64,000 bases of DNA, taken from the NCBI GenBank assembly GCA_963807735.1, contig CAWEDI010000001.1, forward strand, positions 1-64,000, in the 5' to 3' direction. Shown here piece after piece: positions 15,959-64,000 of the stretch. The first letter of the stretch is position 1. Every line of letters starts with the position of its first letter. The position numbers were made by a program, and so were the translations under genes. Under the pieces are notes generated by a model. The model had not been told where the DNA came from, did no database searches, and was given only the letters and a program-made list of their open reading frames with translations. The DNA comes from an uncultured Pseudomonadota bacterium. Its GTDB lineage: Bacteria; Pseudomonadota; Alphaproteobacteria; Rhizobiales; Beijerinckiaceae.

Positions 15959-15962
15959 GGGC

Positions 15963-16934: not shown

Positions 16935-18037
16935 AGGGCGTCCCCCCGTAGCCAGGATTGGATGCGCGTGGATCGCTCTTTCATGGTCGCTTTCGCTTCC
17001 GTGACCGTGGCGCCGCTCGCCGAAACCGTGCAGATCGGCGCGCCCGCTTGGATACGTGAGCCGCGCGCGGGGCGGTCGGCGACCCAATCCGGCCAATCCG
17101 CAGGCGGCGCGATGGCGTCAACCGAAGCGTAGACGATCTCCGCAGCCTTTGGCCGCCGCGGTTTTGGCGGCGCCGCGGCGCGATGTGCGAGCGCATCGAT
17201 GTGTCGTGTCAGCAACGGGTCCGCTGCGTCGTCGAATAGATCCAAGGTGGCGCCGGGGCGCGGATTGACCTCTAACAGCCACCAAGTCTCGCCGTCATCG
17301 ATAAAATCCGCGCTCGCCAGACCCCGGACACCGAGCGATTCCGTGAGCGCCGCAAGCTCCTGCATAAGGCGATCCGGTGGAGACGGGTCCACCGGACCGG
17401 CCGCGCCGCCGTAACGGAAAGGGGTACTTGCGCAGGGCGAAGTCCATTGTTCGCTCCACGCGATAGGCGTCAGTTCCCGGGAATCGCGAGCGAATAGTAA
17501 CGAGACTGCGCGGCCGCGCTTCCGCCGCTGCCAATATTCGCGGGCGCCGAGCGACCGTTCCGGCGAGCCTTCGGCGATATGCAGGCCGCCGGAGCCGCCG
17601 CTCCGTTTAACGACCCAATCTACAGGCGATTCTGGCGAGGCGAAACGTATCTCGGGATGCGAAATTCCAGCCCTCGCGCAAGCCTCAGAGAAGATTCGCG
17701 GATTCTTCGTCCGCGCCAGCGCCTCCGGCGTCGATCCGAACAACGGCAAGACCGCGCCGAGTTGAGCAAGGCGCTGTGGGCAATCATCGAAGCCCGATCC
17801 GTAAACGAGTCCTAGGAGAGCGTGATCGCGGTTCAGACTCGCGACGACAGGTGCGAGGTCGACCTCAGCGAATCCTCCCAAGGCGTTCTCCATTATGCTC
17901 GTCGCTCGACACGCTGAGCACGTATCCTCATCGCCGAAGGCGTCGATCGCAACCGACGCATAACCGGCCCGCCGCGCGGATGCGACGAGGGCGCGCGCCG
18001 AAATGGCGACAATAAGTAAAGCGTGCGCCTCAGTCAC
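16931..18037 (-). CDS. ATP-grasp protein of the H4MPT-linked C1 pathway (OrfY/COG2232-type carboligase-like)
   Basis: WVVKRSGGSGGLHI and WWLLEVNPRPGATL. The start is uncertain: GTG 18037 was chosen, and the track start 18151 would add an Arg/Pro-rich extension. Confidence 0.7.
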   Translation of the reverse strand: MTEAHALLIVAISARALVASARRAGYASVAIDAFGDEDTCSACRATSIMENALGGFAEVDLAPVVASLNRDHALLGLVYGSGFDDCPQRLAQLGAVLPLFGSTPEALARTKNPRIFSEACARAGISHPEIRFASPESPVDWVVKRSGGSGGLHIAEGSPERSLGAREYWQRRKRGRAVSLLFARDSRELTPIAWSEQWTSPCASTPFRYGGAAGPVDPSPPDRLMQELAALTESLGVRGLASADFIDDGETWWLLEVNPRPGATLDLFDDAADPLLTRHIDALAHRAAAPPKPRRPKAAEIVYASVDAIAPPADWPDWVADRPARGSRIQAGAPICTVSASGATVTEAKATMKERSTRIQSWLRGDAL

Positions 18038-18408
18038 GCGTCGCGGGCCCGGTCGCGCTCCGCGTGTCTCCACATATCTCTTCGTCCAACTGGGAACCGC
18101 TCCCGGCGATTCCCGCCGCTTGGGAATCGGCGCCAGCGGCGGCCCCACCAAAAGTCTTCGCTATTCAAGACGTCGGCGGGCGATCTGTCCAGTCGCTCGC
18201 AACGCGGATGCGCGCCTTTGGGGAAGCCGGTGCGACCGCACAATCACACAGAAAAGTCGAAGATTTGAGTCGATGCGTGGCGAGGACGAGGGTGTCGATC
18301 AGGACAATTTCCTCGGCGAACGGATAGACAATTCAGGCGAACCTGTATCAGATTGCCGCGAGCGCGGCCGTCCCGTCTTCGCTGCGGGGGGCTCGAAAGG
18401 ACAGCGAA

Positions 18409-19506
18409 TTGGAGGAAATCTCGGAGCCGCCCACGCAGGCCTGGGTTAACGGAGCGCCAGCGAGTTACGAGGCCGCCGTGTCGGAAGCCGCGCGTTTGCT
18501 GCGCGCGGCGACGGCGCCTGTGTTCGCGCATCTGGGCGCCGACGTCGAAGGCGTACGCGAAGCAGTGCTGCTAGCGGAAGGTATCGGCGGCGTCTTGGAT
18601 CACGCCGCGTCCGGAGCGCTCCTCGCCGATCTCGACGCGATCCGCGAGACCGGCGCGATGCTTACAACGCCCCTGGAGGCGGCGACGCGCGCCGATGTCG
18701 TGCTGCTGATAGGCGGTTCGTTGCCGGAGTCTTGCCCGGATACTGGATGGCGTTGGTTCGACCGCCCCGCTCGTCCGCATGGTGGAGACGCGGCGCGACG
18801 CACGATCTGGCTGCGCGGCTTGGCGGGCGACGTTGTTGAGGTTCCTGGTGCGGAGCTGGTGGAAGCGGGCGCCGACGCCGAACTGTTGAAATTTCTGGCC
18901 AAGCTCAGAGCGTGCGCCAAGCGGAGGCGCATCGAGCCGTCGGCATCGGTTCAGGCACTCGCTGACGTCTTGCGCAATGCAAAGTTTGGCGTCGCGAGTT
19001 GGAGCGCAAGCGATCTCGATCCGCTCGCTATCGAGGCGATCCACGGTCTAGTGCGCGACCTCAACGAGACGACGCGCTTTTCAACTCTGGCGATGGCCGC
19101 TCCGGACAACGGACTCGGCGTGCAGATTGTTTGCGGATGGATGACCGGGTTTCCGCTGCGCACGGGGTTCTCGCACGGTTACCCCGAGCACGATCCTTGG
19201 CGCTTCGATTCGCGGCGGCTCCTCGCCTCTGGCGAAACGGATTGCATCATTTGGGTCTCGTCGCTCGATGGCGGCGCGTCGCCTTGCGAAGGGGTCGCTA
19301 TCGCCATCTGCGATGCGCATGTGCGATTTCCGACGGTTCCCAGAGTTCGCTTGGACGTGGGGAGGCCCGGCGTCGATCACGGCGCCGTGCTTTACGATCC
19401 GCGCGTCGGAGGGTTGGTGGCTTGCTCCGCGACGGCGCCCGCGGCGCCTAGCGTCGCCGCGACCCTCGCAGCAATTCGCGCCCAAATTGACTTCCCGCCA
19501 TGCTGA
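18409..19506 (+). CDS. fhcB: Formyltransferase/hydrolase complex subunit B (FwdB homologue)
   Basis: 365 aa. FwdB-like N-terminus and a 7-nt overlap with fhcA. The track start is TTG, so the start is uncertain. Confidence 0.85.
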   Translation: MEEISEPPTQAWVNGAPASYEAAVSEAARLLRAATAPVFAHLGADVEGVREAVLLAEGIGGVLDHAASGALLADLDAIRETGAMLTTPLEAATRADVVLLIGGSLPESCPDTGWRWFDRPARPHGGDAARRTIWLRGLAGDVVEVPGAELVEAGADAELLKFLAKLRACAKRRRIEPSASVQALADVLRNAKFGVASWSASDLDPLAIEAIHGLVRDLNETTRFSTLAMAAPDNGLGVQIVCGWMTGFPLRTGFSHGYPEHDPWRFDSRRLLASGETDCIIWVSSLDGGASPCEGVAIAICDAHVRFPTVPRVRLDVGRPGVDHGAVLYDPRVGGLVACSATAPAAPSVAATLAAIRAQIDFPPC

Positions 19507-21131
19507 CCAGGATCGCCGGCGGACGAATACTCGACCCCAGTCAGCATCGCGACGAAATAGGCGATCTTTGGCTACAAGGCGACCGAGTTGTCGCGGCCCC
19601 TGCCTCTGGTCAGGCCGGCGAGACTTTCGACGCGACGGGCCTGATCGTTATGGCGGGCGCTATCGATATTCATTCCCACATCGCCGGCGCCAACGTAAAC
19701 ACTGCCCGTTTGCTGCTGCCCGAGCAACATCGCGCGCGCGCCGCCCGTCCCGAAGCGACGCCGCTGTCCAATGCCGGCTGGTCGACATTCGAGACAGGTA
19801 AACTCTACGCCCAAATGGGATTCACCACCGTCGTCGAACCCGCCGTCTCGCCGCATCATGCGCTGCATGCGCATCTAGAACTCGCCGACACGCCGGTCAT
19901 AGACAAAGCAATCCTCGCCATCCTCGGCAACGACGACTTTGGTCTTTCGCTGATGCGCGACGGCGCCGGTCCTGACGCCATTCGTGAACACGTTGCCTGG
20001 ACGCTTCAATCGTCGAAGGCGCTTGGCCTAAAAGTTATCAACGCCGGCGGCGTTGCGGCGTTCAAGGATAATGTCAGGAGTTTCTCGTTCGACGACATCG
20101 TGCCGCACTACGGGGTGTCCAGCCGGCAGATTGTCAAAGCGCTGCAGCGGGCGGTCGCCGAACTCGGGGTGCCACATCCTCTTCACGTTCACTGCAACAA
20201 TCTCGGCCTGCCGGGGAATTACGAAACAGCGCTCGCCACTATAGAAGCAGCGGAGGATATGCCGCTACATCTCGCCCATTTGCAATTCTATGGCTACGGT
20301 CAGGAAGGCAAACTCGGCTTCTCCTCCGCCGCGCCAAAACTCGCCGAAGCCGTCAACGCGGCGAAGAACGTCACCGTCGACGTCGGCCAGGCGATGTTTG
20401 GTCAGACAGTGACGATTTCCTCAGACGTTCTGAGGCAATTTTCCGCGCGAGGTCAAGCGCGGCCGAACAAATATGTCATCATCGATGGCGATGCGAACGG
20501 CGGCGGCGTGTTGCCTTATATTTATAAGGCGGGTAGTTTCGCCAACGCGGTGCAATTCGCAGTCGGGCTCGAACTGTTTCTGCTGATCGAAGATCCGTGG
20601 CGCGTATTCTTCACCACCGATCATCCCAATGGCGCCCCGTTCACCGCTTATCCTGATCTGTTCGCGCTGCTGATGAGCCGCGACTTGCGCGCGCAATGGC
20701 TCGCTAGGTTGCCAGCGGAGGCGCTCGCCGTCACGATACTTGGTTCGTTGACCCGCGAATATAGTTGGAGTGAGATCGCCGTCATGACGCGCGCCGCGCC
20801 AGCCCGTCTGCTCGGCCTCAGGGATCGGGGCCACATTGGAGTGGGTGCGCGCGCCGACGTGGCGATCTATCGCCCCGGCCCTGATCTTGCCGAAACTTTC
20901 CGCCACGCCGCGCGCGTTTACAAGGACGGCGACTGTGTGGTGCGCGACGGCGAACTGACACATTACCGCTTCGGTCGCGCTTTACGGGTTGCGCCCGAAC
21001 CAGATTCGGCGATGCGCAAACGCATCGGCGAATATTACGATCGGCGATATGGGCTTGACGCAGATCTTCTCAGCGTTCCCGAAGCGGCTCTTCCGCGCGA
21101 GCCATTCGAGACTGTCGCATGTCTGAATTGA
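19500..21131 (+). CDS. fhcA: Formyltransferase/hydrolase complex subunit A (FwdA-type amidohydrolase)
   Basis: GAIDIHSHIAG metal-binding motif. 543 aa. Confidence 0.9.
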   Translation: MLTRIAGGRILDPSQHRDEIGDLWLQGDRVVAAPASGQAGETFDATGLIVMAGAIDIHSHIAGANVNTARLLLPEQHRARAARPEATPLSNAGWSTFETGKLYAQMGFTTVVEPAVSPHHALHAHLELADTPVIDKAILAILGNDDFGLSLMRDGAGPDAIREHVAWTLQSSKALGLKVINAGGVAAFKDNVRSFSFDDIVPHYGVSSRQIVKALQRAVAELGVPHPLHVHCNNLGLPGNYETALATIEAAEDMPLHLAHLQFYGYGQEGKLGFSSAAPKLAEAVNAAKNVTVDVGQAMFGQTVTISSDVLRQFSARGQARPNKYVIIDGDANGGGVLPYIYKAGSFANAVQFAVGLELFLLIEDPWRVFFTTDHPNGAPFTAYPDLFALLMSRDLRAQWLARLPAEALAVTILGSLTREYSWSEIAVMTRAAPARLLGLRDRGHIGVGARADVAIYRPGPDLAETFRHAARVYKDGDCVVRDGELTHYRFGRALRVAPEPDSAMRKRIGEYYDRRYGLDADLLSVPEAALPREPFETVACLN

Positions 21132-22030
21132 CGGTCAACGGCGTCGTCATCGACGACACTTTCGCGGAAGCCTTCGACATGCGCGCCACCGCGATCGTCA
21201 TCACCGCCGACAGCGCGAAGTGGGCGCTGCAGGCCGCGGCGACGATGACTGGGTTCGCGACCTCCGTGATTGCCTGCGGCTGCGAGGCGGGCATTGATCG
21301 GACACTCGCACCGGACGAAACGCCGGACGGACGGCCGGGTGTACGGGCGCTGCTGTTTGCGACTTCGACGGCGGAGTTGCAAAAGCAATTGCAGAACCGG
21401 GTCGGTCAATGCGTCCTCACCAGTCCGGGTTCGGCGTGCTACGCTGGCCTCGACGCCGGCGAGGAGAAGCTGAAGCTCGGCGCGGCGATTCGCTTTTTCG
21501 GCGACGGTTGGCAGATCGCCAAGAAGATCGGCGAACGACGCTATTGGCGCCTACCGGTTATGGATGGTGAATTCGTCTGCGAGTCGACGACCTTTATGAC
21601 CAAGCGCGCAGTCGGCGGCGGCAATCTGCTTATTATGGGCGCGACGCCGCAAACCACGCTTGCGGCGACCGAAACTGCCGCCGTTGCGATGCGCGCCGTG
21701 TCCGACGTGATCCTGCCATTCCCTGGCGGAATCGTACGCTCCGGCTCGAAAATCGGCTCCAAGTACAAAGGCGCCATCGCCTCCACCAACCATTTCTACT
21801 GCCCGACGCTGAAGGGCGCCGTCGACAGCGCGATAGGCCCCGAGATCGCTTCGGTGCTGGAAATCGTCATCGACGGACTCACCGGCGAGGCGGTCGCCGC
21901 CGCCATGCGGGCCGGACTCAAGGCGATCGCCGAACTCGGCGCCGCGCGAGGCGTCTTACGCGTGGGTGCCGGAAACTACGGCGGCAAGCTCGGCCGGCAT
22001 CACTACCGACTGAAGGAGCTGGCGCTATGA
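21119..22030 (+). CDS. fhcD: Formylmethanofuran:H4MPT formyltransferase (Ftr homologue)
   Basis: 303 aa. TFAEAFDMRATAIVITA... is typical of Ftr. Overlaps both neighbouring genes. Confidence 0.9.
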   Translation: MSELTVNGVVIDDTFAEAFDMRATAIVITADSAKWALQAAATMTGFATSVIACGCEAGIDRTLAPDETPDGRPGVRALLFATSTAELQKQLQNRVGQCVLTSPGSACYAGLDAGEEKLKLGAAIRFFGDGWQIAKKIGERRYWRLPVMDGEFVCESTTFMTKRAVGGGNLLIMGATPQTTLAATETAAVAMRAVSDVILPFPGGIVRSGSKIGSKYKGAIASTNHFYCPTLKGAVDSAIGPEIASVLEIVIDGLTGEAVAAAMRAGLKAIAELGAARGVLRVGAGNYGGKLGRHHYRLKELAL

Positions 22031-22839
22031 GCCGGCTGACTTTCAACCTGCGCAACGCCCCGGCGCAACGCGTCGATCTCTCCGTGCTCACGCCCGCGAA
22101 GCTGACAGGGAAGAGCCTTCCCGAGATCGCTGCGCTGAAGATTGGCACGACTCGCGCCCCGCTAGAGGTCGGTGACTTGTTTGATCTGAGGGACGGCGAC
22201 CGCGAAGAGATCGTATTCGAAGGGGGGGCGGAGCGTTTCGATCGCGTAGGCGGAGGGCTTGGCCAAGGATTGATCCGCGTACTCGGCGACGTTGGCGTCG
22301 AAGCCGGGCGCGGCATGACGGGCGGCGTTGTGACGATCGAAGGCGCAGCAGGGCCATTCGCGGGCTCGGGGATGCGCGGCGGCCGTCTGACGATTGGCGG
22401 CGAAGCAGGCGAGCGACTCGGCGGCCCGCTCGCGGGCGAGACGGAAGGCGTGAATGGCGGAGTGATCCACGTCCGCGGCGGTGCGGGCGCACGCGCAGGC
22501 GACCGACTGCGTCGCGGATTCATTTTGATCGAGGGAGATGCCGGCGACTACGCGGGGAGCCGCATGATCGCCGGCACCCTTGCGGTCGGCGGCCGCTCCG
22601 GCGCACTCCCCGGATATCTGATGAATCGGGGCACGATTCTGATGGTCGGCGGAACTAAGGAGATTACGCCGACCTTCGTTGATTGCGGGGTTTTCGAACT
22701 GGTCGCAGCGCAATTGCTCGCGACCTTCATCTCGACGACCAGCGTCCGCCTGGGCGCGGCGTTTCGCGGGCCGTTGCGGCGCTATGCCGGGGATATGGCT
22801 GCGCTTGGCAAAGGCGAGATTTTTCTGAGGACGGAATGA
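22027..22839 (+). CDS. fhcC: Formyltransferase/hydrolase complex subunit C (FwdC homologue)
   Basis: Gly-rich beta-helix repeats (GMTGGVVTIEGAAG, GMRGGRLTIGG). ATGA overlap with fhcD. Confidence 0.9.
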   Translation: MSRLTFNLRNAPAQRVDLSVLTPAKLTGKSLPEIAALKIGTTRAPLEVGDLFDLRDGDREEIVFEGGAERFDRVGGGLGQGLIRVLGDVGVEAGRGMTGGVVTIEGAAGPFAGSGMRGGRLTIGGEAGERLGGPLAGETEGVNGGVIHVRGGAGARAGDRLRRGFILIEGDAGDYAGSRMIAGTLAVGGRSGALPGYLMNRGTILMVGGTKEITPTFVDCGVFELVAAQLLATFISTTSVRLGAAFRGPLRRYAGDMAALGKGEIFLRTE

Positions 22840-22885
22840 GTGAAGCAATCGACGCAGCACTTTCGTCGTTGGGAGGTACGGTAAC

Positions 22886-23395
22886 TTGAAGCACGGGAAA
22901 GTTGGAGTCGTCGCGGCAGCGCTGATTGGTCTAGTCGGCTCCGTCTCTTGGACCCATGCCGAAGACGTCGACGCAGCGATCGCAGTGATCGACTTCGATT
23001 ACCTCGACACCTCCGGCGAACCCTCGGATCAGCAAGGGCAGCATACGGCGAGGTTGCAAGAATTCATGCGTTCGCTACGCGCCGATTTGGCCAATGAAGG
23101 ACGCTTCCGGGTCGTGGCGATCGCCTGCGAGCAACCGCCTTGCACCGCGGGCGGCACGCCGCCCGCCGATCTGATTGCCCGCGCCAAGCAGGCGGGTGCA
23201 AGGCTGATGCTGTTCGGCCAAGTGCACAAGATGAGCACGTTGATTGAATGGGCCAACACCGAAATCGTCGATCTGGCTGCAGACAAGCTGATCGAAAGCA
23301 AACTGTTCACGTTTCGCGGCGACACCGACGAAGCGTGGCGGCGCGCCGAACAATTTATTGTCGAGGAAACAACGAACGCCGCGCCCAAATTATGA
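22886..23395 (+). CDS. Secreted protein of unknown function (DUF3280/DUF2380-like, tentative)
   Basis: Signal peptide (VGVVAAALIGLVGSVSWTHA-ED). TTG start 10 nt after GGAGG. Lies 47 nt downstream of fhcC on the same strand. Confidence 0.6.
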   Translation: MKHGKVGVVAAALIGLVGSVSWTHAEDVDAAIAVIDFDYLDTSGEPSDQQGQHTARLQEFMRSLRADLANEGRFRVVAIACEQPPCTAGGTPPADLIARAKQAGARLMLFGQVHKMSTLIEWANTEIVDLAADKLIESKLFTFRGDTDEAWRRAEQFIVEETTNAAPKL

Positions 23396-43304: not shown

Positions 43305-44291
43305 TCAGCCGACTTTGACGGTCCGTCCGGTCTTCCATGATTGATAGGCCGCGTCGGCGAGGAGCAGCGCCTGAAGGCCGTCATGACCGCTCGGCTTTGT
43401 TTCTTGTCCCGACTTCACGGCCATTACGAACGCGTTCAGTTCACTTCGGTACGCCGCGTCATAACGCTCGAGGAAGAAATTGAGGGCTTTGTCCGCAGTA
43501 TAGCCTTGAGCACCGGCGTGCTCAACGGTCGTCTCGCGCACGTTTCCGGCGGCGACCATGCCCGTCGAGCCATGCACCTCGGCTCGCTGGTCATAGCCAT
43601 AGCTGGCTCGGCGGGAGTTGGAGATCTCGCATACCTTACCCGATTTGGTTTGCAGGAGCACTACCGCCGTATCGACATCGCCCGCCTCGCCAATGGCGGG
43701 GTCCACCAGAGAGGCGCCAAAAGCGGACACGGCGACCGGTTCCTCGCCAAGCAGAAACCGCGCCATGTCGAAATCGTGGATCATCATGTCGCGGAACAGG
43801 CCGCCCGATCGTTCGATATAGGAGACCGGCGGCGGCGAAGGGTCGCGAGAAGTAATCTGGACGATCTCCACTTCGCCAACGGCTCCCTGCGCGATCCGCT
43901 TTTGCAAACTCGCGAAATTTGGGTCGAAACGACGGTTGAAGCCGATCATCAGCTTAGCCTTGTGCGCCCTTACCACTTCGAGGCACGCGCGTACCCGGTC
44001 AGTCGAGAGGTCGACAGGCTTCTCGCAAAATATCGCTTTGCCAGCCTTGGCGCAGCGCTCGATCAGGTCGGCGTGGGTGTCCGTCGGAGAGCAGATCGCC
44101 ACAGCGTCAATGTCTTTTGCTGCTATGATGTCTTCGATAGAGCCAACTTTGCCGCCCGTCGCAGCCGCCAACGCCGTTGACGCGCCAGCGTCGGCGTCGG
44201 CCACAAGCAGCACAGAACAGTCCACATGCTTCGCGATATTGCTGCCGTGGATCTTACCAATACGCCCTGCTCCGATCACCCCGAATCGCAT
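43305..44291 (-). CDS. Gfo/Idh/MocA oxidoreductase (inositol 2-dehydrogenase-like)
   Basis: MRFGVIGAGRIGKIH..., FCEKPV. Confidence 0.8.
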   Translation of the reverse strand: MRFGVIGAGRIGKIHGSNIAKHVDCSVLLVADADAGASTALAAATGGKVGSIEDIIAAKDIDAVAICSPTDTHADLIERCAKAGKAIFCEKPVDLSTDRVRACLEVVRAHKAKLMIGFNRRFDPNFASLQKRIAQGAVGEVEIVQITSRDPSPPPVSYIERSGGLFRDMMIHDFDMARFLLGEEPVAVSAFGASLVDPAIGEAGDVDTAVVLLQTKSGKVCEISNSRRASYGYDQRAEVHGSTGMVAAGNVRETTVEHAGAQGYTADKALNFFLERYDAAYRSELNAFVMAVKSGQETKPSGHDGLQALLLADAAYQSWKTGRTVKVG

Positions 44292-52801: not shown

Positions 52802-53633
52802 GCCCTACTCCCCTGCTTCGCGTTTGGCGGTCGCCGGTAACACGGCGACCCAGCGTCGACAAGCGTCGCCCTTAGACGCTCCGGCGAGCGGCCATTGGTG
52901 CAATGCGGTATTTGAATCGCCAAGCGAGTCGCCTCTCCGATTGCGGCGAGTCCCAGCGCTTCGGCGTCAATCAAATAGGCCTCACGCCACTAGACTCGAG
53001 TTACCTTGGTCGCGTTGGGGACTCAGGAACGATACGGAAAGCCGGACGCCAAACGTAGGCAATTCGACCTCGGTGTACGAGATGCACCATCGGTCCATGG
53101 GATTTGAGGGTCGCGAATACATTTCTGTGTGCGGGACCATTGCAACGCCCTGCCTTTTAAAATGGTCATTATTCGTTAAGCGATAGGCAACCGTCGCGCA
53201 AATTTCAATTTCGGGACAAGGCGTAGCCGTGAGTTTCGTCGCACCGGCTTCAGGCAGTTGTGCGCCGGCCTAATCTTAGAGTCCGATATTTTTGCGACTT
53301 TAAGCCCCAATTCGATTCGTTGCATATCTCGTGACGATAATATTGTGATTGATCGACGATCTAAAATATCGAGATGGCGTAAAGTTGTTTTACAAAAAAT
53401 TCAATATACATCAACGTAAATAGATTATATGCAACTGATATCGCTGTTAACAATATTATAATACGTTACGTAATACAGAATCGACAATTTGACCAATGTA
53501 CAATTCGTGATGGACGTAACGTAATCTTGCCTATCCAAAATAAATCTGTATCCCCGAGCGATCGGCGGCGAAGCATCGAAGTGATTCGCGCGCGGCTGCG
53601 CCGTCTTGGATGTGAGCGCCCTGGGGGTTCGCG

Positions 53634-56600
53634 ATGACGTCTTTCATTAGTTCGCTGTCGAATGCGCAGATCGCCAACCTGTCGACCACGACAATGGCGA
53701 GTCTAAAAACTACTGACATCACTGCGTTGACGGCCGGTCAGGTCGGGGCGTTGAGCGGCACCCAGCTTAGCGCGCTGACAACAACTGCCGAAGCTGCTTT
53801 GACTACGTCGCAGATTACCGGCTTCTCGACGCAGGCGGCGCCTTCGCTCTCCATGGCGATGATCTTAGCGCTCGCCAATACGCAGGCCGACGCAATGACG
53901 GCGACAGTGCTCGGCGCGTTAAGCACGACCAACATCAACGCCCTGACGAGTACGGAGTTGCAGGGTCTTACGTCCGCGCAGGTTAACGGCTTCAACTCGA
54001 CACAGATCGCCGGAATGACGACGACGACCCTCGGCAATTTGGGGACGACGCTGCTTGGCGACCTCAACGCTGGTCAAGTCAAAGGCCTGACGACAACGCA
54101 GATCAACACGACCACGACAACGGCCCTCAACGCAATCAACGCTGTGAACTTCTCGTCCACGCAAATCGCCGGCCTATCGACGACCACCCTTAACAACCTG
54201 TCTACGTCCCAGGCCTCGGCGCTAACCAGCGCGCAGGCGTCGGCGCTCTCGACAGCCGACCTGACCGCGTTGACTTCCACCAATCTGCGTGCGCTTAGCA
54301 ATTCCGCGATTACCGGCATCTCGCCCACCAACATAAGTCAACTAACGACGACGACGCTGAGCAACTTATCAACTACCCAGCTCGCCGGATTGACGACGTT
54401 GCAGGTCAGGGGATTGACGACAAATCAAATCAATGCCAGTCCCACGACCGTTCTCAATGCGCTCAATGCAGCGTATATATCATCCTCGCAGATTGCTGGT
54501 CTTACAACGACCGCGCTCAATAACTTCACGACTTCGCAGCTCGCCGCACTGACGAGTGCGGCGGTTAGCGCTCTCAACGGCACGGACGCCAACGCGCTCA
54601 CTTCGACCAATTTGCAGGCGCTCACCACGACAGCGGACCTGGGCTTAACCTCGACGACTTTGTCCGGCATGACGACGACCGCGCTTGGAAATTTCTCCAG
54701 CACCGAACTTAGCCTGCTCACAAGCACCCAGGTGCAGGGACTAACGTCCACGCAGCTAAATTCGATCAGTACGACGACGCTCGCCGCACTCAACGTCGCA
54801 ACTTTGTCGAGCACGCAAATCACGGGCCTGACGACAACGACACTAAACAACATATCAACGACGCAAATCGGCGTGTTGACCAGTAAACAATCCGCCTCGT
54901 TGACCTCCTCGGAACTCAACGCTCTGAGCTCGACCAACGTTCATGCGCTGTCGGCGACGGGACTTGCGGGCCTTACCACGACGGCACTGTCCGGTCTAAC
55001 GACGACAGCGCTCAGCAATTTCGCGACGACGCAATTTTCGCTGCTCTCTACTGCACAGGTGAAGGGCCTATCAACAACACAGTTGAACTCCGCGACGACG
55101 ACCGTGCTCAACGCGCTCAACGCGGCGAGCCTGTCCAGCACCCAGATCGCCGGACTCACAACAACGACGCTGCTAAACGTGACGACCGCGCAATTCAATG
55201 CGTTGACCGCAACTCAAGCCTCGGCGCTCGCATCGACCGGTCTTAACGCCCTTACGTCGACCGACGTCCAAGCTCTTAGCACGACTGCGGTTGCTGGCTT
55301 GGCGACAGCGAGCCTCAGCGGCGTGACGACCACGGCGCTATCGAACCTGACTTCGTCGCAGGTAGCCACACTGACTTCGTCGCAAATTCAGAGTCTGACA
55401 ACTACGCAACTCAACGCAGCGACGACCACCGTACTTGGCGAGTTCAACGCCTCCAATTTGTCGAGCACACAAATCGGCGGATTGGCCACGACGACGTTCA
55501 ACAATTTGACGTCGACACAGTTTAGCTCGCTTGCCAGCCGGCAGTTAAACGCATTGACTTCGACGGAGCTCAACGCGGTAACCTCGACTAACATACGCGC
55601 CCTTGCCGTGACCGCCCTCGGCGGCATCACGACGTCCACGCTCGCTGCCGCGACTACAACCGCAGTCGCGAACTTCTCGACCACGCAACTAGGCGCACTT
55701 ACGTCGTCTCAGGTACAGGGTCTCACCTCAACGCAGTTGAATACGGTCACGTCGACTTCGCTCAACGCTCTCAACGCGGCGAACCTGTCGGCGGCGCAGA
55801 TCGCGAATCTTTCGACGACGGCCACCAATCTCTTGACGACTGCGCAGATTGGTTCGCTTACGAGCAAACAGACATCCGGGCTTACTTCAACAAGTCTCAA
55901 TGCTCTGACCTCAACGAACGCGCAAGCGCTAACGTCCTCGGCGATTGCCGGTATAACCTCGACGGTCGTGGCCGCGTTGAGCACAACGACGCTCAACGCG
56001 ATTACGACGACTCAGGTTGCGGCGCTAACGGCGACACAAGCTGATGCGCTATCCTCGAACGCAACTCTCGGGTCTAACCACAACGCAGCTCGGAGCGCTC
56101 AACGCCGCGAAATTCACGTCGACGCAATTCGGCGCGCTCACGACCACCACCCTTAACGCGCTCACAACAACGCAGCTCAGTTCGTTGGCGAGCAGTGGCG
56201 TAGCGGGTCTGACTTCAACCGAGCTGAACGCGCTCACCTCGACGAATCTGCGAGCGCTCACCAATACGTCCCTACCCGGTATTACTTCGACAGCCCTTGC
56301 GGGCGCCACGACGACAACTCTCTCGAATTTCAGCACTTCTCAATTGGCGGCGCTCAATAGTACGCAGGTGCAGAGCCTGACGACAACGCAGCTGACTGCG
56401 GCGACGACTACGTCGCTTAACGCTCTAAACGCCGCCTATCTATCCGCGACGCAACTATCCGGCTTTACTACAACTGCTGCAAACGCTCTCACAACTTCGC
56501 AGCTCGGCGTCCTAACGAGCAAACAGACCTCTGGACTAACGTCTACCGATTTGAATGCATTGACCTCCACCAACCTGCAAGCGATCACAACCTCTGCGAT

Positions 56601-59600
56601 CGTCGGCTTCACCACTAGCGCGGTGGCCGCGTTGGCCTCCACGGCGCTTAACGGTCTAACGACGACGCAGGTAGCCGCGTTGACGACCTCGCAACTTGAC
56701 GCGCTTTCCACGACGCAGCTTGCTGGCGTGACGACAACAAATCTTGCCGCAATAAGTGCGTCGAAGTTGACCTCGGCGCAGATCGGCACCCTGACGACCA
56801 CGACATTTAATGCTTTGACGACGACGCAAATGGGGTCGCTGACCAGCGCAGAAATCGCCGGCCTTGCCTCGACTGATCTCAATGCGTTGAGCTCGACGAA
56901 CCTGCAGGCGCTCACTACTAGCGCCCTCGCTGGCTTGAGCACCACGGCTGTCGCCGGTGCGACGACGACGGCGCTTGCCGTCTTCTCCACGACTCAACTG
57001 GCGTCGCTCAGCACAACCCAAGTAGAGGCTCTAACCACAACGCAGTTGACGACGGGAACCAGCACCGCCCTCAACGCGCTTGCTGCGGCCAAGTTATCTT
57101 CAACGCAGCTTGGCGGACTCACGACGACGACCGCGAATGCCCTCACTACTACGCAGATGGCTGCGCTGACGAGCAAACAGACCGTCGGTTTGACTTCGAC
57201 CGTGCTTAACGCGCTGACTTCGACAAACCTTCAGGCGCTTACAACGACTTCGGTGGTCGGTCTAGCAAGCACGGTTATCGGCGCGCTCGCCTCGACCGCG
57301 CTCAATGCGTTGACTACGATCCAAATTGCGTCGCTAAATTCCACCCAGCTGGATGCTCTTTCGTCCACGCAGCTCAGCGGGTTGACCACGACCAATCTCG
57401 GTGCTGTCGGCGCCGCGAAGCTGACGTCAACGCAAGTAGGCGCGCTGACCTCAACCACGCTTAATGCGCTGACGACGACGCAGGCAGGGTCCTTGACCAG
57501 TGCGGAGTTAGGCGGCCTCACCTCGAGCGAGCTCAACGCCCTTACCTCGACCAATTTGCAGGTGCTGGCGACGACGGCGCTTGCCAATCTTTCCACGACG
57601 GCGATCTCTGGGGCGACGACCACTGCGCTTGGTCTGTTCACGACGACGCAGCTCGGCGCGTTGACCACGTCGCAGATCCAAGCCCTGTCGACGGGCCAGC
57701 TTACCACCGTGACCTCGACTGCGCTGAACGCTTTGAACGCAGCGCGATTGTCAAGCACTCAGCTGTCAGGATTCACTACAACGGCGGCGAATGCCCTGAC
57801 GACGACGCAGATCGCGGCACTAAGCAGCGGCCAGGTTGCAGGGCTCACATCCACCGTCGCAAACGCCTTGACCTCGACGAATCTTCAAGCGCTCAACACC
57901 TCGGCGCTTGCCGGGCTTACGAGCACCGTCGCCGGGGCGCTTACGTCAACCTCGCTCAACGCTCTTGCGACGACGCAACTCGCAACGTTGAACGCAACGC
58001 AGCTCAACGCTCTTTCGTCGACCCAATTCAGCGGTCTTACTACGACGAACCTGGACTCCTTGGCGGCGGCGAAGCTGACCTCGACACAGATCAATTCTTT
58101 GACATCCACTACGCTCAATGCTCTGACAACAACACAGGTTGCGGCGCTGACGAGCGGCGAGATCTCGGGTATGACTTCGGTTGAGCTTAATGCGTTGACG
58201 TCGACCAATTTGCAGTCCCTCACCACGTCCGCGCTGACCGGTCTATCGTCGAACGCTCTTGTCGGCGCCACTACGACGGCGCTCGCGGTATTCACAACGA
58301 CGCAGCTCGGTGCGCTGACAACAAGCCAAATCCAGAGTCTGACGACATCGCAACTCAACACGGTGACTTCTACCGTGCTCAATGCGCTCGAGGTCGCGAG
58401 GTTGTCGACCACACAAGTGTCGGGTTTGACGACGACAGCGGCGCTGGCGATGACGACAACGCAGCTTGGGACGCTGACGAGCACAGAGGTGGGCGCGCTC
58501 ACGACTACGGACCTCAATGCCCTGAGTTCGACCGATTTGCAGACTCTGACGTCTACCGCGCTTGGTGGTATCACCTCCACAGCGGTATCTGGCTTGACGA
58601 CAACCACGCTGAACAATCTGACGACGACGCAACTGGGCCTACTGAACACTACGCAGGTTCAGGCGCTCGCGACGACGCAGCTTGGCCTCATCACGACGAC
58701 GCAGCTGGGCGCTATCACCGCCTCGAAGTTGTCTTCGACGCAAGTCAGCGGTTTGACGACGACAACACTGCAGTCCTTCACGTCAAGCCAATTGAACGCA
58801 CTATCGGGGACCGAGGTTGCCGCATTGAGCGCCACCGATCTCAATGCGATGACCTCGACGGACCTGCAGGCGTTATCGAGCACGGGCGCGTCGGGCCTAA
58901 CGACAGCCGCGCTTTCCGGCGCCACGACCACTGCGCTGACCAACTTCACCACAACTCAGCTTAATGCGCTGACGGCCACGCAGGTGCAAAGCCTGACGAC
59001 TTCTCAGCTTGACCTCATTGCTTCGACGGCGCTCGAGGCGCTCAACGCCGCAAGGCTCACGAGCACGCAGATTGGTGGTCTATCGACCACCGCGCTTAAT
59101 GCACTTTCGACTACGCAAGTCTCCGGCCTGTCCAACTCGCAAGTTCCACTTATGAGCTCGGCGTCGATCGGAGCTCTTACCTCGACCAACTTGCAGGCGT
59201 TGTCGACGACGGCGATTGGAGGCTTGGCGCCGACGACGGTTGCGCAGCTCACCACGACGGCGCTCAGCAATTTCACAACGACGCAGTTGGGCGCGCTGTC
59301 GTCGGCGCAGATCCAAAGCCTTTCTGCGAACCAGCTCAATTCCGCGACGACCACGGTGCTTAACGCCGTGAATGCAGCGCAGTTCAGCACGACCCAGGTC
59401 GGCGGTCTGACGACGACGGCGCTCAACGCTCTGACGACAACGAATCTTGCGGGCTTTACGTCAGCGGAATCGTCGGCCTTGTCTGCAGCGGCTGTTAACG
59501 CGATGACATCGACCAACTTACAGACGTTGAGCACCTCGGCGCTTGATGGTTTGACAACCGCGGCGTTGTCGGGGGCGACCACCACGGCGCTCAGCAACTT

Positions 59601-60177
59601 CACGACCACTCAGCTCGCCTCGCTTTCGAACGCACAGGTCCAGTCGCTTGGCGCGAGTCAGCTCGGTGCGGTAACAACGACTGCGCTCAACGCTTTGAAC
59701 GCCGCAAGCCTGTCGAGCACACAGCTTGGCTCACTGACCACGACTGCGATCAACAACCTTAGTGCGACACAGCTGAGCGGCCTCGTGTCCTCTCAGCTGT
59801 CTGGTTTAAGCGCGGCGGACGTCAACGCCCTGACGTCGACGAACCTGCATGCCTTGGCGACGGCCGCAATATCGGGCCTTGCGACGAGCATAATCAGCAG
59901 CCTGACGACGACGTCTCTGGGCAACTTCAACGCCGTACAGGTCAACGCCCTATCAGGAGCGCAGATTCAATCCTTTGGTGCAAGCCAACTCAACTCTATC
60001 ACCTCGACAGTGCTGCAACAGCTGGACGTAACGCAGCTTTCGACCTCGCAAATCTCTGGCTTAACGACCACGACGATTGGAAACATGACATCAACTCAAG
60101 GCAACGCCCTGACTAACACGCAAGTGCAAGCCATGAACAGCGCGCAACTCACCGCTCTGCAGACGCTAGTCGGTTAG
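53634..60177 (+). CDS. Giant Thr/Ser/Leu/Ala/Asn/Gln octad-repeat protein. It would be ~2180 aa if the single +1 frameshift at ~56058 is ignored. No recognisable N-terminal signal peptide.
   Basis: Track ORFs 53634..56156 and 56044..60177 carry the same repeat. The repeat register continues from ...TATQADALSS (ends 56057) into TQLSGLTTTQLGALNAAKF (from 56059). 2424 nt + 1 nt + 4119 nt equals 2181 codons when one base is removed. Confidence 0.8.
53700..60150 (+). repeat. Coding tandem repeat: 24-nt (8-aa, xTxTxLxAL-type) periodicity nested in ~327/654-nt (about 109/218-aa) higher-order repeats
   Basis: Hand-parsed copy: GATTTALAVF...LSTTAIS is 218 aa, made of 24 octads plus two 13-residue AAKLxSTQxGxL elements. 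Successive copies start with GATTTAL(A/G/S/T)xF. Confidence 0.8.
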
Positions 60178-60193
60178 CGGCTTATGTTAGAAT

Positions 60194-60220
60194 CAGTGGC
60201 GCGCGACAGGTGCGCCACTG
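60194..60220 (+). terminator. 9-bp perfect hairpin just after the giant gene (no U-tract; weak terminator or processing site)
   Basis: CAGTGGCGC-GCGACAGGT-GCGCCACTG. Confidence 0.4.
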
Positions 60221-60296
60221 CAAGTAAAGGCTTGGCAAGTTAAGTTCGAGCTCCGAGCCTAGTAATGTCTATGCGAGACGATGGTGGAGAGACTAG

Positions 60297-62360
60297 ATGC
60301 TGCGGCAAAGCCAATTCGAAGGGCAGTCCCTCGTTTCTCCCGCCGAGTTGGAGAGTTACGGCTTCTACCAGAGCTGGAGCGCCGGCGATCTCCTTACGCA
60401 CGCCGAACGTTTCAACGCTGACGGCGCCTCGAACGTCGCCGCCGCGCTGTATAAGAATTGGATCGCCGCCAACCCTCGTCACGATTTTTTGCATGCCGCC
60501 TACTTTAACTACAGTTTTTCGCTGGCGAAGGCGGGCGATCGACTTGGAGCGATCGCCGCCGCTCGTGAGTGCCAGCGGCTGAAGCCGGATTTCTTCCCCA
60601 TTTATGTCAATCTCGGACGGCTTCTCGAAGACGCCGGCCAACTCGCCGAAGCGATCGAACAATGGCGGTCGATGATCGAACATCTGCCTCAAATTCGTGG
60701 CGAGACGATACGGAACAAACTCACTGCGCTTGAACAAATGGCGCGCGTTCTTGAGGCGCACGACATCGACGGGCCGGGCGAGGAGGCGTTGCGGCTTTCG
60801 CTCGATATTTCCATTCATCAACCCGCTGTGATCCAGCATTACATTGCATTGCGGCAACGCCAATGCAAATGGCCCGTTGTTCAGGGGTGGGATGGCGTCA
60901 AGACGGAAGCCCTGATGTCGGACATTTCGCCGCTTTCGATTGCCAATTTGTCCAACGACCCGCTATTCCAGTTCGCGCGCTCAGCGACCTATTATCGAGA
61001 GCTTGTCGGTCCGAGACCGAGCCAAGTCGAGATCCCAGCGCCGCCCGCGGCGATGGATCGCAAGCCGGGGCGCTTGCGCATCGGATACGTATCTTCCGAT
61101 CTTCGGGAGCACGCCGTCGGCTTTGCAATGACTGACGTGCTGGAGACACACGACAAAAACAATTTCGAGATCTTCGCGTATTACTGCGGGATCGCTCGTG
61201 ATGACGGTATCAAACAGCGGTGCCGAAGCGCTGCAGATCAATGGATCGACATCAACGAACTTAGCGATGAGGAGGCGGCTCGGCGAATACGGGCCGACGA
61301 TGTTGATATTCTCGTCGATTTAAACGGCTTTACCAAGAGCGCGCGGACAAAGGTCCTCTCATTTCGCCCGGCGCCCGTGATCGTCAATTGGTTTGGTTTT
61401 CCCGGTACTATGGGTTCGCCGGATCATCACTATCTGATCGCCGACTCCCGGGTCATTCCGCCTGAAGCCGAGCGCTTTTACACAGAGAAGGTTGTGCGGC
61501 TCTCTTGTTACCAACCGAACGACCGTAAACGCATCGTCGCCGCCCCGTCTAGTCGCGCGGGCGAGGGATTGCCAGACGACGCATTTGTGTTCTGCTCGCT
61601 CAACGGTCCGCAAAAGTTTACACCGAGCATTTTTTCAAGCTGGATGGGGATACTCAGTGCGGTGCCCAACAGCGTCATGTGGTTGTTCGGCGGCGCGGGC
61701 GACACCAACGACCGCTTGCGGGCATTTGCGCGCGCAGCCAACGTTGCGTCGGAGCGACTCATTTTTGCAGAGAAGAAGGCTAACCCGCATCACGTGGCGC
61801 GCTACGCGCTGGCGGATTTGTTCCTCGATACGTTTCCTTATGGCTCGCACACGACAGCCGCCGATTCGCTCTGGATGGGCCTGCCGGTCGTCACGTTCTC
61901 TGGCCGCACCTTTGCCTCGCGGGTCTGTGCAAGTCTTTTGCATGCCGCTGGAATTGGAGAGTTGGCATGCGCGTCGCGCGAACAATACGTTGAAACTGCT
62001 GTCGCCCTAGCGAAAGATCGCCACGCCCTTAAGCTTCTGAGACAACGGCTTGTCGAGAATCGTGACAAGTGCCGGTTGTTCGATACGCCGACGTTGGTCC
62101 GAGAATTGGAGGAAGCCTACCGCGGTATGCACGAGGACTATAAGGTCGGCCGACTTCCGATCCCTAATCTAATCAATATCGGCTACTACCACGAGATCGG
62201 CGTTGCGCTCAGTGCAGGAGAGTTAAATGATGACGCCTATCTGGGCGTCTACACGCACGAACTCGCGCGACGGGATGCGATCACTCCCATACCGAGGGAC
62301 GGGCGGGCTTGGGACGGGCGGCCGGGCAAAAAAAGTTCCCAGCTGAACTTTTTTTCTTAA
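60297..62360 (+). CDS. TPR-domain + GT41 (O-GlcNAc transferase/SPINDLY-type) protein glycosyltransferase
   Basis: N-terminal TPR-like helices (LYKNWIAANP..., CQRLKPDFFPIYVNLGRLLEDAGQLAEAIEQW). C-terminal GT41 motifs: RIGYVSSDLREHAVG, VDLNGFT, FCSLNGPQKFTP, PNSVMWLFGG, LADLFLDTFPYGSHTTAADSLWMGLPVVTFSGRTFASRV. Confidence 0.85.
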   Translation: MLRQSQFEGQSLVSPAELESYGFYQSWSAGDLLTHAERFNADGASNVAAALYKNWIAANPRHDFLHAAYFNYSFSLAKAGDRLGAIAAARECQRLKPDFFPIYVNLGRLLEDAGQLAEAIEQWRSMIEHLPQIRGETIRNKLTALEQMARVLEAHDIDGPGEEALRLSLDISIHQPAVIQHYIALRQRQCKWPVVQGWDGVKTEALMSDISPLSIANLSNDPLFQFARSATYYRELVGPRPSQVEIPAPPAAMDRKPGRLRIGYVSSDLREHAVGFAMTDVLETHDKNNFEIFAYYCGIARDDGIKQRCRSAADQWIDINELSDEEAARRIRADDVDILVDLNGFTKSARTKVLSFRPAPVIVNWFGFPGTMGSPDHHYLIADSRVIPPEAERFYTEKVVRLSCYQPNDRKRIVAAPSSRAGEGLPDDAFVFCSLNGPQKFTPSIFSSWMGILSAVPNSVMWLFGGAGDTNDRLRAFARAANVASERLIFAEKKANPHHVARYALADLFLDTFPYGSHTTAADSLWMGLPVVTFSGRTFASRVCASLLHAAGIGELACASREQYVETAVALAKDRHALKLLRQRLVENRDKCRLFDTPTLVRELEEAYRGMHEDYKVGRLPIPNLINIGYYHEIGVALSAGELNDDAYLGVYTHELARRDAITPIPRDGRAWDGRPGKKSSQLNFFS

Positions 62361-62455
62361 AGCGGCTTGCGTTTTTTGCAACGCAATGTATCTTATTGCT
62401 GTGCGGCGCCAGTCGCCGCATATGCCCTCCTTGGGCGTTTCCTCCCTTAACTCGG

Positions 62456-62491
62456 GGCCGCTGTCTTACGATAGCGGCCTCCTTTTATTTT
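62456..62491 (+). terminator. Rho-independent terminator after the GT41 gene
   Basis: GGCCGCT-GTCTTACGAT-AGCGGCC followed by TCCTTTTATTTT. Confidence 0.6.
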
Positions 62492-62508: not shown

Positions 62509-63576
62509 TCATCCTAGCGTGACAACGCGCCCCGTTCGGATGCTTTCGTCCGCCGCGAGGACGATCCGAAGCGAATCAATCGCCGCCCGGACATGTTCGG
62601 TTGTATCCTCTTTCTCGCGGATGGCTTTTAGAAAGGCTCGCTGCTCGCGATTGCAAAGCTCCTGATGCCCCGGCTCGTCATCCATGCGTAGAATCTCGTC
62701 GCGCTTTGCAAAGCGCCCATCCGGCCCGACAGCGGCGTGGTGCAATCGTAGAGCGCTGGTTTTTGTGTGCGAGTCAATGTCGGAAGATTCCGTCTTGCTC
62801 TCGTCGACGGCGATCGAAACGGCACCCTTGGGGCCAATCATGTCTTTCACGAAGAAGGCAGTTTGGCTCATCATCGGTCCCCAGCCGGCCTCGTACCAGC
62901 CGATGGAGTCGTCATCGAAAGCGACTTGGAGACAACCATAATTGTACATTGCGGGCGACACTTCGTCCGATAACCGCGCGCCGAGCGCATGGACCCGCAA
63001 TGGCCGCGCGCCCGTCACTTGACACATCACGTCGACGTAATGGACGCCACAGTCGACGATCGGACTGACCGTTTCCATGAGCTTCTTGTGAGTCGTCCAT
63101 TCTGCTCCGAGCGACTGTTGATTAAGGTTCATCCGCAACACCAGCGGCTTCCCGAGCGTACGGCCGATCTCTACGAATTTCTTCCAGGAAGGGTGCACGC
63201 GGAGGATATAGCCGATCGTCAAACTTCGGCTCCTCGCGATCGCGAGCGCCGCGATAGACTCCGCTTCCGCCACCGTTTGGGCGAGCGGCTTTTCGATAAA
63301 GACATGAGCGTCCGCCTCTAGGGCGGCTCGCGCGAACGAAGCATGTGTGTCAGGCCACGTGTTGATGGAGACGGCTTCGGGCTTTGTCGCCGCTAAAGCC
63401 GCTGCGAAGTCGTCGAAGCGCGGCACGCCCCGAAACTCAGCCTCAACGTCGGGCCGTCGGTAAATGTCGCGGCTGCACAAGCCGACGATTTCGAAACCCT
63501 CGATTTCCTTATAGGCGCGCGCGTGGCTGAGCCCCATGTTGCCAAGACCAACGACGAGTATGCGGACGTTCTGCAT
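62509..63576 (-). CDS. Gfo/Idh/MocA family oxidoreductase
   Basis: VRILVVGLGNMGLSHA, FIEKPLA. Start at ATG 63576 or 63588. Confidence 0.85.
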   Translation of the reverse strand: MQNVRILVVGLGNMGLSHARAYKEIEGFEIVGLCSRDIYRRPDVEAEFRGVPRFDDFAAALAATKPEAVSINTWPDTHASFARAALEADAHVFIEKPLAQTVAEAESIAALAIARSRSLTIGYILRVHPSWKKFVEIGRTLGKPLVLRMNLNQQSLGAEWTTHKKLMETVSPIVDCGVHYVDVMCQVTGARPLRVHALGARLSDEVSPAMYNYGCLQVAFDDDSIGWYEAGWGPMMSQTAFFVKDMIGPKGAVSIAVDESKTESSDIDSHTKTSALRLHHAAVGPDGRFAKRDEILRMDDEPGHQELCNREQRAFLKAIREKEDTTEHVRAAIDSLRIVLAADESIRTGRVVTLG

Positions 63577-64000
63577 AATTGACCTCACGCGTTGAACAGG
63601 CCAGATTTGATACAGGCTTTCGAGGCTTGTTGAGCGCCGTCACGTGGGGCTCATTCGCATCTATCCATGGCATGCGCTACATCGTCAGCACTTTACGCAT
63701 TTGCGTGAACATGTTCGGTCATCGGTGCATTTGAGAGGGACGTCTTCTACGATTTATAGAAGTCGTCGACTTCGAGAACTCGCACAAGCTATCAGGTTTT
63801 TTTTATAGAGAACAAGGCCCAGCGGCTGGCGAGCTTAGGAGTTCGATCCCCGCTCGAGAACCAAGACCTCACCAGCGCTAATCTGCTAGACGCCCCAAAT
63901 AGCTCGTTGATATAGACGTATTTTGGGCGGTACGCATGACTTATCTTCAGCAACACGGACCCGTAGTACTTGTTCGCGGTCCTGGGTCGATCTTCGTTGA

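Follow-up and report, generated by a model that had tools for sequence, protein, structure and literature searches.

A conserved gene pair encoding an OGT-type GT41 glycosyltransferase and a giant ALTTAQ-repeat protein in an uncultured Beijerinckiaceae bacterium

The glycosyltransferase gene and its giant neighbour

The window analysed here is a 64,000-nucleotide stretch (positions 1–64,000, forward strand) of contig CAWEDI010000001.1 from an uncultured Beijerinckiaceae bacterium (assembly GCA_963807735.1), and its subject is a pair of adjacent plus-strand genes. The upstream gene (53634–60177) encodes a giant protein of about 2180 residues, once a frameshift is repaired, which belongs to the ALTTAQ repeat family (Pfam PF20080). 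The downstream gene (60297–62360) encodes a 687-residue protein glycosyltransferase (GT) that combines tetratricopeptide repeat (TPR)-like repeats with a catalytic region of family GT41, of the type found in O-GlcNAc transferase (OGT) and its Xanthomonas relative XcOGT; the assignment comes from Pfam and Protein Data Bank (PDB) matches. An initial annotation of the window had proposed that the two genes form a dedicated module in which the GT glycosylates the repeat protein before export or assembly.

The GT matches Glyco_transf_41 (PF13844) with an E-value of 1.5e-78 (264.9 bits, cut-off 25). Among solved structures, human OGT (E 3.5e-81) and XcOGT (E 3.3e-79) are closest to it, followed by SPINDLY (about 5e-55), whereas solved chains of the HMW1C/N-glycosyltransferase (NGT) type reach E 3e-4 over about 90 residues only and the NCBIfam NGTferase model NF049992 gives 20.8 bits, with its cut-off at 1000. 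The catalytic region (residues ~255–620, nucleotides 61059–62156) aligns to residues 197–534 of XcOGT in phmmer, and since the alignment to XcOGT 124–534 is a single unbroken stretch, the GT lacks the intervening domain of the metazoan enzymes. Residues H272, K440, H499, H518, T519, T520 and D523 align to XcOGT H218 and K388 and to the Lys, His, His-Thr-Thr and Asp motifs of human OGT, and an alignment with 12 orthologous sequences shows no variation at any of them. UDP-binding and catalytic residues are retained in this alignment, by which the enzyme looks catalytically competent.

The TPR-like region (residues 29–130, nucleotides 60381–60686) is predicted by AlphaFold2 to form three helical hairpins (pLDDT 84–92). 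It aligns to the TPR structure of human OGT (PDB id: 1w3b; phmmer E 5e-11), and its invariant residues N71 and N105 match positions of the human asparagine ladder, in which they presumably play the same role. The TPR matches in Pfam are all below the gathering threshold (TPR_2, 24.5 bits vs 27). The TPR plus GT41 architecture given in the initial annotation is thus firm for its GT41 part, while its TPR part stands on the 1w3b alignment and the predicted hairpins. Compared to XcOGT, the GT carries an additional conserved C-terminal tail of about 65 residues and a distinct N-terminal motif. The model of the whole enzyme, built from a 12-sequence alignment, has a moderate mean pLDDT of 64.7. Judged by its alignments, the GT is an XcOGT-like member of the OGT branch of GT41 with about three TPRs, and it would transfer sugar to Ser or Thr residues of protein.

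The giant gene is read as two overlapping open reading frames (ORFs; 53634–56156 and 56044–60177), both of which match PF20080 (E 9e-62 and 6e-107; 349.4 and 204.8 bits vs a gathering threshold of 26.4; 20 and 14 repeat stretches). The break is a single-base frameshift (56052–56062, plus strand), an extra A in TCC TCG A-ACG (TCGAACG, ~56058). Once one A is deleted, the repeat frame resumes (...ALSS/TQLSGLTTTQ...) and a single 2180-residue protein results. As it stands, the frameshift cuts the product short before its conserved C-terminus, and no ribosome-binding site is seen before the ATG of the second ORF. In both halves the repeats are intact and unscrambled, with no further stops. Orthologues are encoded by single ORFs at several loci (among them L010, L020, L043 and L047; the compared loci carry L-numbers), and fragmented ORFs also occur at some other loci from metagenome-assembled genomes (MAGs), several of them with multiple breaks. 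The frameshift could be a real mutation or an assembly error. The Ser/Thr-rich neighbour described in the initial annotation is therefore present, but as a gene split by one nucleotide into two ORFs.

The repeat protein is built of octapeptides with the pattern L-T/S-T/S-T-Q-hydrophobic-x-A/G, and it shows periods of 8, 109 and 218 residues, the latter two being super-repeats. Its composition is dominated by Thr (23.8%), Leu (16.6%), Ala (15.2%) and Ser (13.3%); Asp, Glu, Lys and Arg together make up 2.8%, and Cys and Trp are absent. Ser and Thr account for 37% of the repaired protein, less than the half estimated earlier. N-x-S/T sequons, which had been described as numerous, show no enrichment and are in fact depleted, with 34 observed vs 53 expected from composition. 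No Sec signal is found in the protein, whose N-terminus opens directly with a repeat-like motif. Both termini are conserved across loci, including the C-terminal ~35 residues. An exact-sequence cluster look-up with five ALTTAQ proteins returned no match.

Conservation of the pairing and predicted repeat fold

Five homologues of the GT with 55–81% identity all have an ALTTAQ gene immediately upstream (5/5), in differing contexts. A scan limited to one genome per species added 80 Hyphomicrobiales loci, giving 88 in total with the earlier ones, from genera that include Roseiarcus, Methylosinus, Methylocystis, Methylocapsa, Pseudolabrys, Lichenihabitans, Methylobacterium, Beijerinckia and Aestuariivirga. 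An ALTTAQ ORF lies beside the GT (51–83% identity) in 82 of the 88 loci. At the other six, the sequence available upstream is shorter than 500 nt and hence uninformative, so the pair is present in 82 of 82 informative loci. Its surroundings vary widely (at least 36 different contexts; 36 upstream and 45 downstream gene families), and its own arrangement, mostly tandem, is at times divergent or has the GT first; the pairing persists. One Lichenihabitans contig carries two separate pairs (L048 and L072), whose GTs are 65% identical. Candidatus Accumulibacter, a betaproteobacterium, has two ALTTAQ genes directly followed by a TPR-GT41 gene whose product is 39% identical to the window GT over residues 23–605, and an unclassified metagenome contig (L164) has a GT41 gene and an ALTTAQ gene as divergent neighbours. 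This constancy amid varied flanks, extending to the betaproteobacterial case, supports the dedicated two-gene module of the initial annotation.

The reverse association is looser. A metagenome scan with the conserved ALTTAQ C-terminus (a six-sequence alignment) returned 72 loci, of which 48 have a GT directly downstream, 20 have none although 700 nt or more could be inspected there, and four are too short. About 16 of the 20 are informative and three others are internal matches; the association holds for 48 of about 64 informative C-termini. Because the two counts are 82/82 and 48/~64, a GT of this type implies ALTTAQ essentially always, and ALTTAQ implies the GT only mostly. The initial annotation had named conservation of either gene without the other in most relatives as telling against a module; the GT stands alone in 0 of 82 informative loci and ALTTAQ in about 16 of about 64. 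A class of short ALTTAQ proteins (~300–410 residues, N-terminus MSVIPFISA..., C-terminus ...ALAALIQ) was observed with no GT41 gene within several kb (L116:3209-4429, also L105, L109, L111, L114, L125 and L130).

No ALTTAQ gene was found within 10 kb of the XcOGT orthologue, where the gene order is hemA-prfA-OGT. Since XcOGT has this housekeeping context without ALTTAQ, the ALTTAQ-linked GT41 enzymes are a separate subfamily. The XcOGT orthologue (L166:8919-11707) directly follows prfA, the stop of which its start overlaps, downstream of hemA.

An AlphaFold2 model of a 436-residue repeat segment, for which the protein’s own repeats served as the alignment, is predicted with high confidence (pLDDT 89.9). 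It shows a solenoid to which each octapeptide contributes one helix, 56 in all, with a mean length of 5.2 residues. The helix N' position is Leu in 42 of 55 cases. Thr or Ser occupies the N-cap (46/56), N1 (50/56) and N2 (47/56), Gln is found at N3 (23/56), and Leu, Val or Ile at N4 (47/56). In helix capping terms, the motif L-T-T-T-Q-L is a hydrophobic staple combined with a capping box, and because it reads in this way, much of the Thr and Gln content of the protein is structural in the predicted fold. A Foldseek comparison of the model with the PDB found nothing at E < 1e-3, and the top query-normalised TM-score is 0.29. A β-helix had been suggested by the octapeptide periodicity and by a spurious match to Pfam Gp5_trimer_C in L007; it was rejected, as AlphaFold2 gives confident short helices in a non-trimeric model.

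Transcription signals and neighbouring genes

The repeat gene is preceded on the plus strand by an AT-rich leader (53280–53560; GC 34.5% vs 61% for the whole window), which contains a sigma-70-like promoter match (53435–53462; CTGATA-16-TATAAT, 10 of 12 positions, a consensus match only). Several promoter-like hexamer pairs are present on both strands of this AT-rich stretch. The stop codon of the repeat gene ends at 60177 and the GT starts at 60297 on the same strand, leaving a gap of 119 nt. RNA folding of 60170–60300 gives an 11-bp GC-rich hairpin without a U-tract after the stop codon (60194–60220). A GGAG Shine-Dalgarno motif can be read in the sequence 7 nt 5' of the GT start (60286–60289), and the GT gene is followed by a terminator-like GC-rich hairpin with a T-run (62454–62491; 12 pairs, 8 of them G-C, tail CTTTTATTTT). 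The spacing of about 120 nt, the U-less hairpin between the genes and the good terminator after the GT had all been recognised in the initial annotation and are confirmed here.

Of 107 loci, most have a strong hairpin no more than 80 nt after the ALTTAQ stop codon (median z –2.1, 54% below –2). These hairpins differ in sequence from locus to locus, and the distance between the repeat gene and the start of the GT has a median of 155 nt. The intergenic hairpin is a candidate attenuator, stabiliser of the mRNA 3'-end or terminator. In either of the first two roles it would keep the structural protein in large excess over the enzyme. It may equally well end transcription between the two genes, which are a putative operon.

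In the window, the pair is surrounded by housekeeping genes and genes of tetrahydromethanopterin (H4MPT)-dependent C1 metabolism. The latter include a C1-transfer cluster (14247–23000) with a CitG-like protein, the Mch cyclohydrolase, an ATP-grasp protein, an FhcA-like amidohydrolase and the formyltransferase FTR, which points to a methylotroph-type Hyphomicrobiales host. There are also three minus-strand Gfo/Idh/MocA oxidoreductase genes (921–1982, 43305–44291 and 62509–63588). The last of these is convergent with the GT gene and its product bears a weak likeness to UDP-GlcNAc 3-dehydrogenase (99 bits vs a cut-off of 450), a match too weak to support a role in sugar supply. No flagellar, type I secretion system (T1SS) or sugar accessory genes are present among the window ORFs scanned, which cover most, not all, of the 64 kb.

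At other loci the pair has sugar-related neighbours of several kinds. An orthologous short-chain dehydrogenase/reductase (dehydratase/epimerase-like, below every NCBIfam cut-off) accompanies it in 24 loci. The GT is extended by an N-terminal GT8 domain into GT8-TPR-GT41 fusions at two loci (L057:9098-12013 and L070:8978-12028), the second of which also has a GT2 gene adjoining the pair, and a TPR-sulfotransferase gene (L082:11956-14049) follows another GT with its start overlapping the GT stop. Variable neighbours of this sort suggest variable elaboration of the glycan. An ORF (‘unk505’) found 3' of the GT in Methylosinus and Methylocystis has no Pfam match and was discarded, as it looks like a GC-rich off-frame artefact.

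In Methylobacterium, Methylorubrum and three MAGs, the pair adjoins secretion genes, which encode a T1SS ABC transporter and an HlyD-family protein and occur in two arrangements. On the metagenome contig L164 (2298-12997), a gene for a 1208-residue C39-like-TPR-GT41 protein is divergent from a gene with ALTTAQ and ‘SPM’ regions, which is followed by genes for a C39-ABC transporter and an AprE/HlyD-type membrane fusion protein. A copy of the motif found at the N-terminus of the window GT recurs at the C-terminus of this GT (32% identity, E 1e-9). In Buttiauxella gaviniae (L162:187-14715), a C39-ABC/HlyD T1SS gene pair precedes three calpain-like (Peptidase_C2) genes, two of them with ALTTAQ repeats; no GT41 gene was found near these ALTTAQ-calpain genes. 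In some ALTTAQ proteins the C-terminal part is an RTX or a Ca-binding ‘SPM’ domain.

Flagellar genes form a third group of neighbours. In about 19 loci of the Pseudolabrys clade, the pair is followed at 0.1–8 kb by flgE-flgK-flgL and two flagellin genes, and rod and hook genes are near it in L057 and L070. In Accumulibacter (L163:1-11668), the genes come in the order fliC-flaG-fliD-fliS-fliT-fliK, two ALTTAQ genes (314 and 517 residues), the TPR-GT41 gene and a methyltransferase gene.

Interpretation and relation to known systems

We favour, with a probability of roughly 0.6, the reading that the pair is a conserved two-gene module for cytoplasmic OGT-type O-glycosylation of a giant ALTTAQ solenoid, which is exported without a Sec signal and becomes an extracellular fibre or coat. 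The ALTTAQ repeat protein is most likely the natural target of the GT. In the proposed sequence of events, the three TPR-like repeats of the GT would bind the repeat protein before it folds, and the catalytic domain would move sugar from a UDP-sugar donor onto its Ser and Thr hydroxyls in the cytoplasm, before export. Once folded, the giant would be a long solenoid with helices of 5 residues, in which the exposed N1 and N2 positions of each octapeptide would be the likeliest glycan sites. Export would not rely on a Sec signal; its most plausible route is a T1SS that recognises the conserved C-terminus, and it would place a densely O-glycosylated fibre or coat protein outside the cell. A broader proposal, put forward tentatively and held with less confidence than its opposite, is that ALTTAQ giants are an unrecognised class of mucin-like glycoproteins, decorated on Ser and Thr by an OGT-type GT41 subfamily and exported by T1SS.

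Several observations weigh against the favoured reading. Adjacent T1SS genes occur in only 5 of the 88 alphaproteobacterial loci, no T1SS gene was found in the 64-kb window, and we know of no T1SS substrate reported to be glycosylated before export. The intergenic hairpin may be a terminator, so that the pair is only a putative operon. The repeat gene of the window is itself frameshifted. On the side of the partner gene, about 16 of the 20 GT-less C-termini are informative, mostly belonging to short (~300–410 residues) paralogues; some long ALTTAQ proteins also have no adjacent GT41, and L161 and L165 carry ALTTAQ genes with no GT41 nearby. Flagellar genes adjoin the pair in about 21 loci as well as in Accumulibacter, a neighbourhood that would also fit flagellar export of the repeat protein or flagellin as a second substrate.

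The abundance of Ser and Thr, on which the initial annotation had leaned as a sign of the substrate, also counts for little. When octads were phased in GT-linked and unlinked ALTTAQ proteins, the Ser plus Thr fraction at octad positions 3/4 was only modestly higher in the linked ones (0.66/0.74) than in unlinked short alphaproteobacterial proteins (0.52/0.57) or other unlinked ones (0.49/0.49). If the predicted fold is right, with Thr at the N-cap, N1 and N2 and Gln at N3, the richness in Thr and Ser is largely explained by structure. As unlinked ALTTAQ proteins are only moderately lower at positions 3/4, Ser/Thr richness is weak evidence for a substrate, and it was dropped as an argument.

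The alternative that survives best, although improbable, is decay of the module in this particular genome, with the repeat gene a pseudogene and the GT a remnant. It draws on the truncating frameshift at ~56058 and on the second ORF, at which no ribosome-binding site is seen. Both halves nevertheless keep their repeats free of further stops, the GT retains every invariant residue, and metagenome assemblies often contain single-base indels, the multiple breaks at related MAG loci included.

A GT that acts as a general or regulatory cytoplasmic O-glycosyltransferase on many substrates is less probable again; the adjacency would then reflect co-regulation, or non-catalytic chaperoning or tethering of ALTTAQ by the TPRs. 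Human OGT modifies many proteins, and so, reportedly, does Yersinia HmwC (PMC11329713). The strong hairpin between the genes and the ALTTAQ genes without a GT neighbour point the same way. Strict adjacency in dozens of neighbourhoods and duplicated pairs are, however, typical of enzyme-substrate modules, and enzymes with few TPRs tend to have a narrow range. In a plant lysate, XcOGT acted on just one protein (PMC2556091). Moreover, XcOGT, in its hemA-prfA context, has no ALTTAQ partner, and the ALTTAQ-linked enzymes stand apart from it as a distinct subfamily.

That the GT is a FlmG-like glycosyltransferase of flagellins or other flagellar proteins, with ALTTAQ merely co-located or a flagellum-exported accessory, is rather unlikely. 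It has a precedent in FlmG, a TPR plus GT-B enzyme that acts on flagellins in the cytoplasm (PMC7591256), and it would account for the flagellar genes near the pair in the Pseudolabrys clade, L057, L070 and Accumulibacter. Yet the constant neighbour of the GT is ALTTAQ and not flagellin, the majority of the 88 loci have no flagellar genes inside 10 kb, and none is present among the scanned ORFs of the window. The ~19 flagellar-adjacent loci count as one or two evolutionary events, because wider synteny is common to them, and no genes of a nonulosonic-acid pathway (neuB-type) were seen near the pair.

N-glycosylation of the giant after the HMW1C/HMW1 model, an option raised in the initial annotation, is very improbable and the least likely of all: GT41 does include NGTs, the repeat protein has 34 N-x-S/T sites and an NGT model matches weakly and locally, but this match lies far below its cut-off, NGT chains reach E 3e-4 vs 1e-79 to 1e-81 for OGT and XcOGT, NGTs are without the TPRs that the GT has, the sequons are depleted, and no partner gene for two-partner secretion was seen.

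The favoured reading, O-glycosylation of the ALTTAQ solenoid by its adjacent GT, follows a known logic, in which a dedicated cytoplasmic GT is encoded beside a giant repeat adhesin or another structural substrate (HMW1C/HMW1, GtfA/B-SRR, Aah/AIDA-I, FlmG/flagellins). The literature searched appears to contain no description of ALTTAQ proteins paired with a GT41 of the OGT branch, of the possible link of the pair to T1SS or of the predicted fold, and it offered nothing relevant on ALTTAQ/PF20080 function or on a T1SS-GT41 link. Bacterial OGT-like GT41 enzymes are abundant and the structure of XcOGT has been known since 2008. To our knowledge, their native substrates are mostly unknown. A GT41 subfamily constantly accompanied by one kind of repeat protein thus offers a concrete and directly testable enzyme-substrate pair, and methylotrophs available in culture, among them Methylosinus, Methylocystis and Methylobacterium, possess it. 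If the reading is true, it would give the uncharacterised ALTTAQ family its first function, in a new fibre-forming solenoid fold built entirely from capping-box mini-helices, and bacterial OGT-like enzymes their first defined native substrate class. It would also provide the first glycoprotein to pass a T1SS, which would mean that glycosylated polypeptides are possibly exportable by this route. The pair could further serve as a simple tool for cytoplasmic O-glycosylation with a highly repetitive acceptor.

Among known systems, the enzymes closest to the GT are XcOGT (PDB ids: 2jlb, 2vsy) and human OGT. Similar to XcOGT, the GT has about three TPRs before a GT-B domain and no intervening domain, and it shares with XcOGT and human OGT the conserved residues H272, K440, H518-T519-T520 and D523. 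It differs from XcOGT in its genomic partner, its C-terminal tail and its N-terminal motif. No activity of XcOGT was detected on bacterial lysates (PMC2556091).

A parallel in gene arrangement is HMW1C/NGT with HMW1 in Haemophilus and Actinobacillus, where a cytoplasmic GT41 enzyme is reported to modify, ahead of its export, a giant secreted repeat adhesin whose gene lies next to that of the enzyme (PMC3983070, PMC3012730). Both systems place a cytoplasmic GT41-family enzyme gene beside a gene for a giant repeat protein. HMW1C/NGT, however, belongs to a different branch of GT41, is devoid of TPRs and attaches hexose through an N-linkage at sequons, and its substrate uses Sec and two-partner secretion; in the window protein sequons are depleted and a Sec signal is absent.

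Caulobacter FlmG combines an N-terminal substrate-binding TPR domain with a C-terminal GT-B domain and, in the cytoplasm, modifies Thr residues of flagellins by O-linkage (PMC7591256). The likeness to the window GT lies in the TPR plus GT-B layout, architecture being all that was compared. FlmG transfers pseudaminic acid to flagellins, unlike the window-type GT, whose partner is ALTTAQ and near which no pseudaminic-acid genes were seen.

In GspB/Fap1 with GtfA/GtfB, AIDA-I/Aah and TibA/TibC, too, a dedicated cytoplasmic O-glycosyltransferase is encoded next to a Ser/Thr-rich repeat adhesin and acts before export. The serine-rich repeat (SRR) glycoproteins of Gram-positive cocci and the autotransporters modified by heptosyltransferases nevertheless involve unrelated enzyme families (GT4, BAHT), Sec-type signals, accessory Sec (aSec) or type V export and other repeat folds. 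None of the SRR/aSec features (a long signal peptide, LPXTG, SecA2/SecY2 or GtfA/GtfB) was seen in the protein or the neighbouring genes examined, and the likeness of the window pair to that system is functional only. Within PF20080 itself, other members are fused to calpain-like proteases or to RTX or Ca-binding ‘SPM’ domains, whereas the ALTTAQ type of the window is made up of repeats alone, has a much greater length and contains somewhat more Thr.

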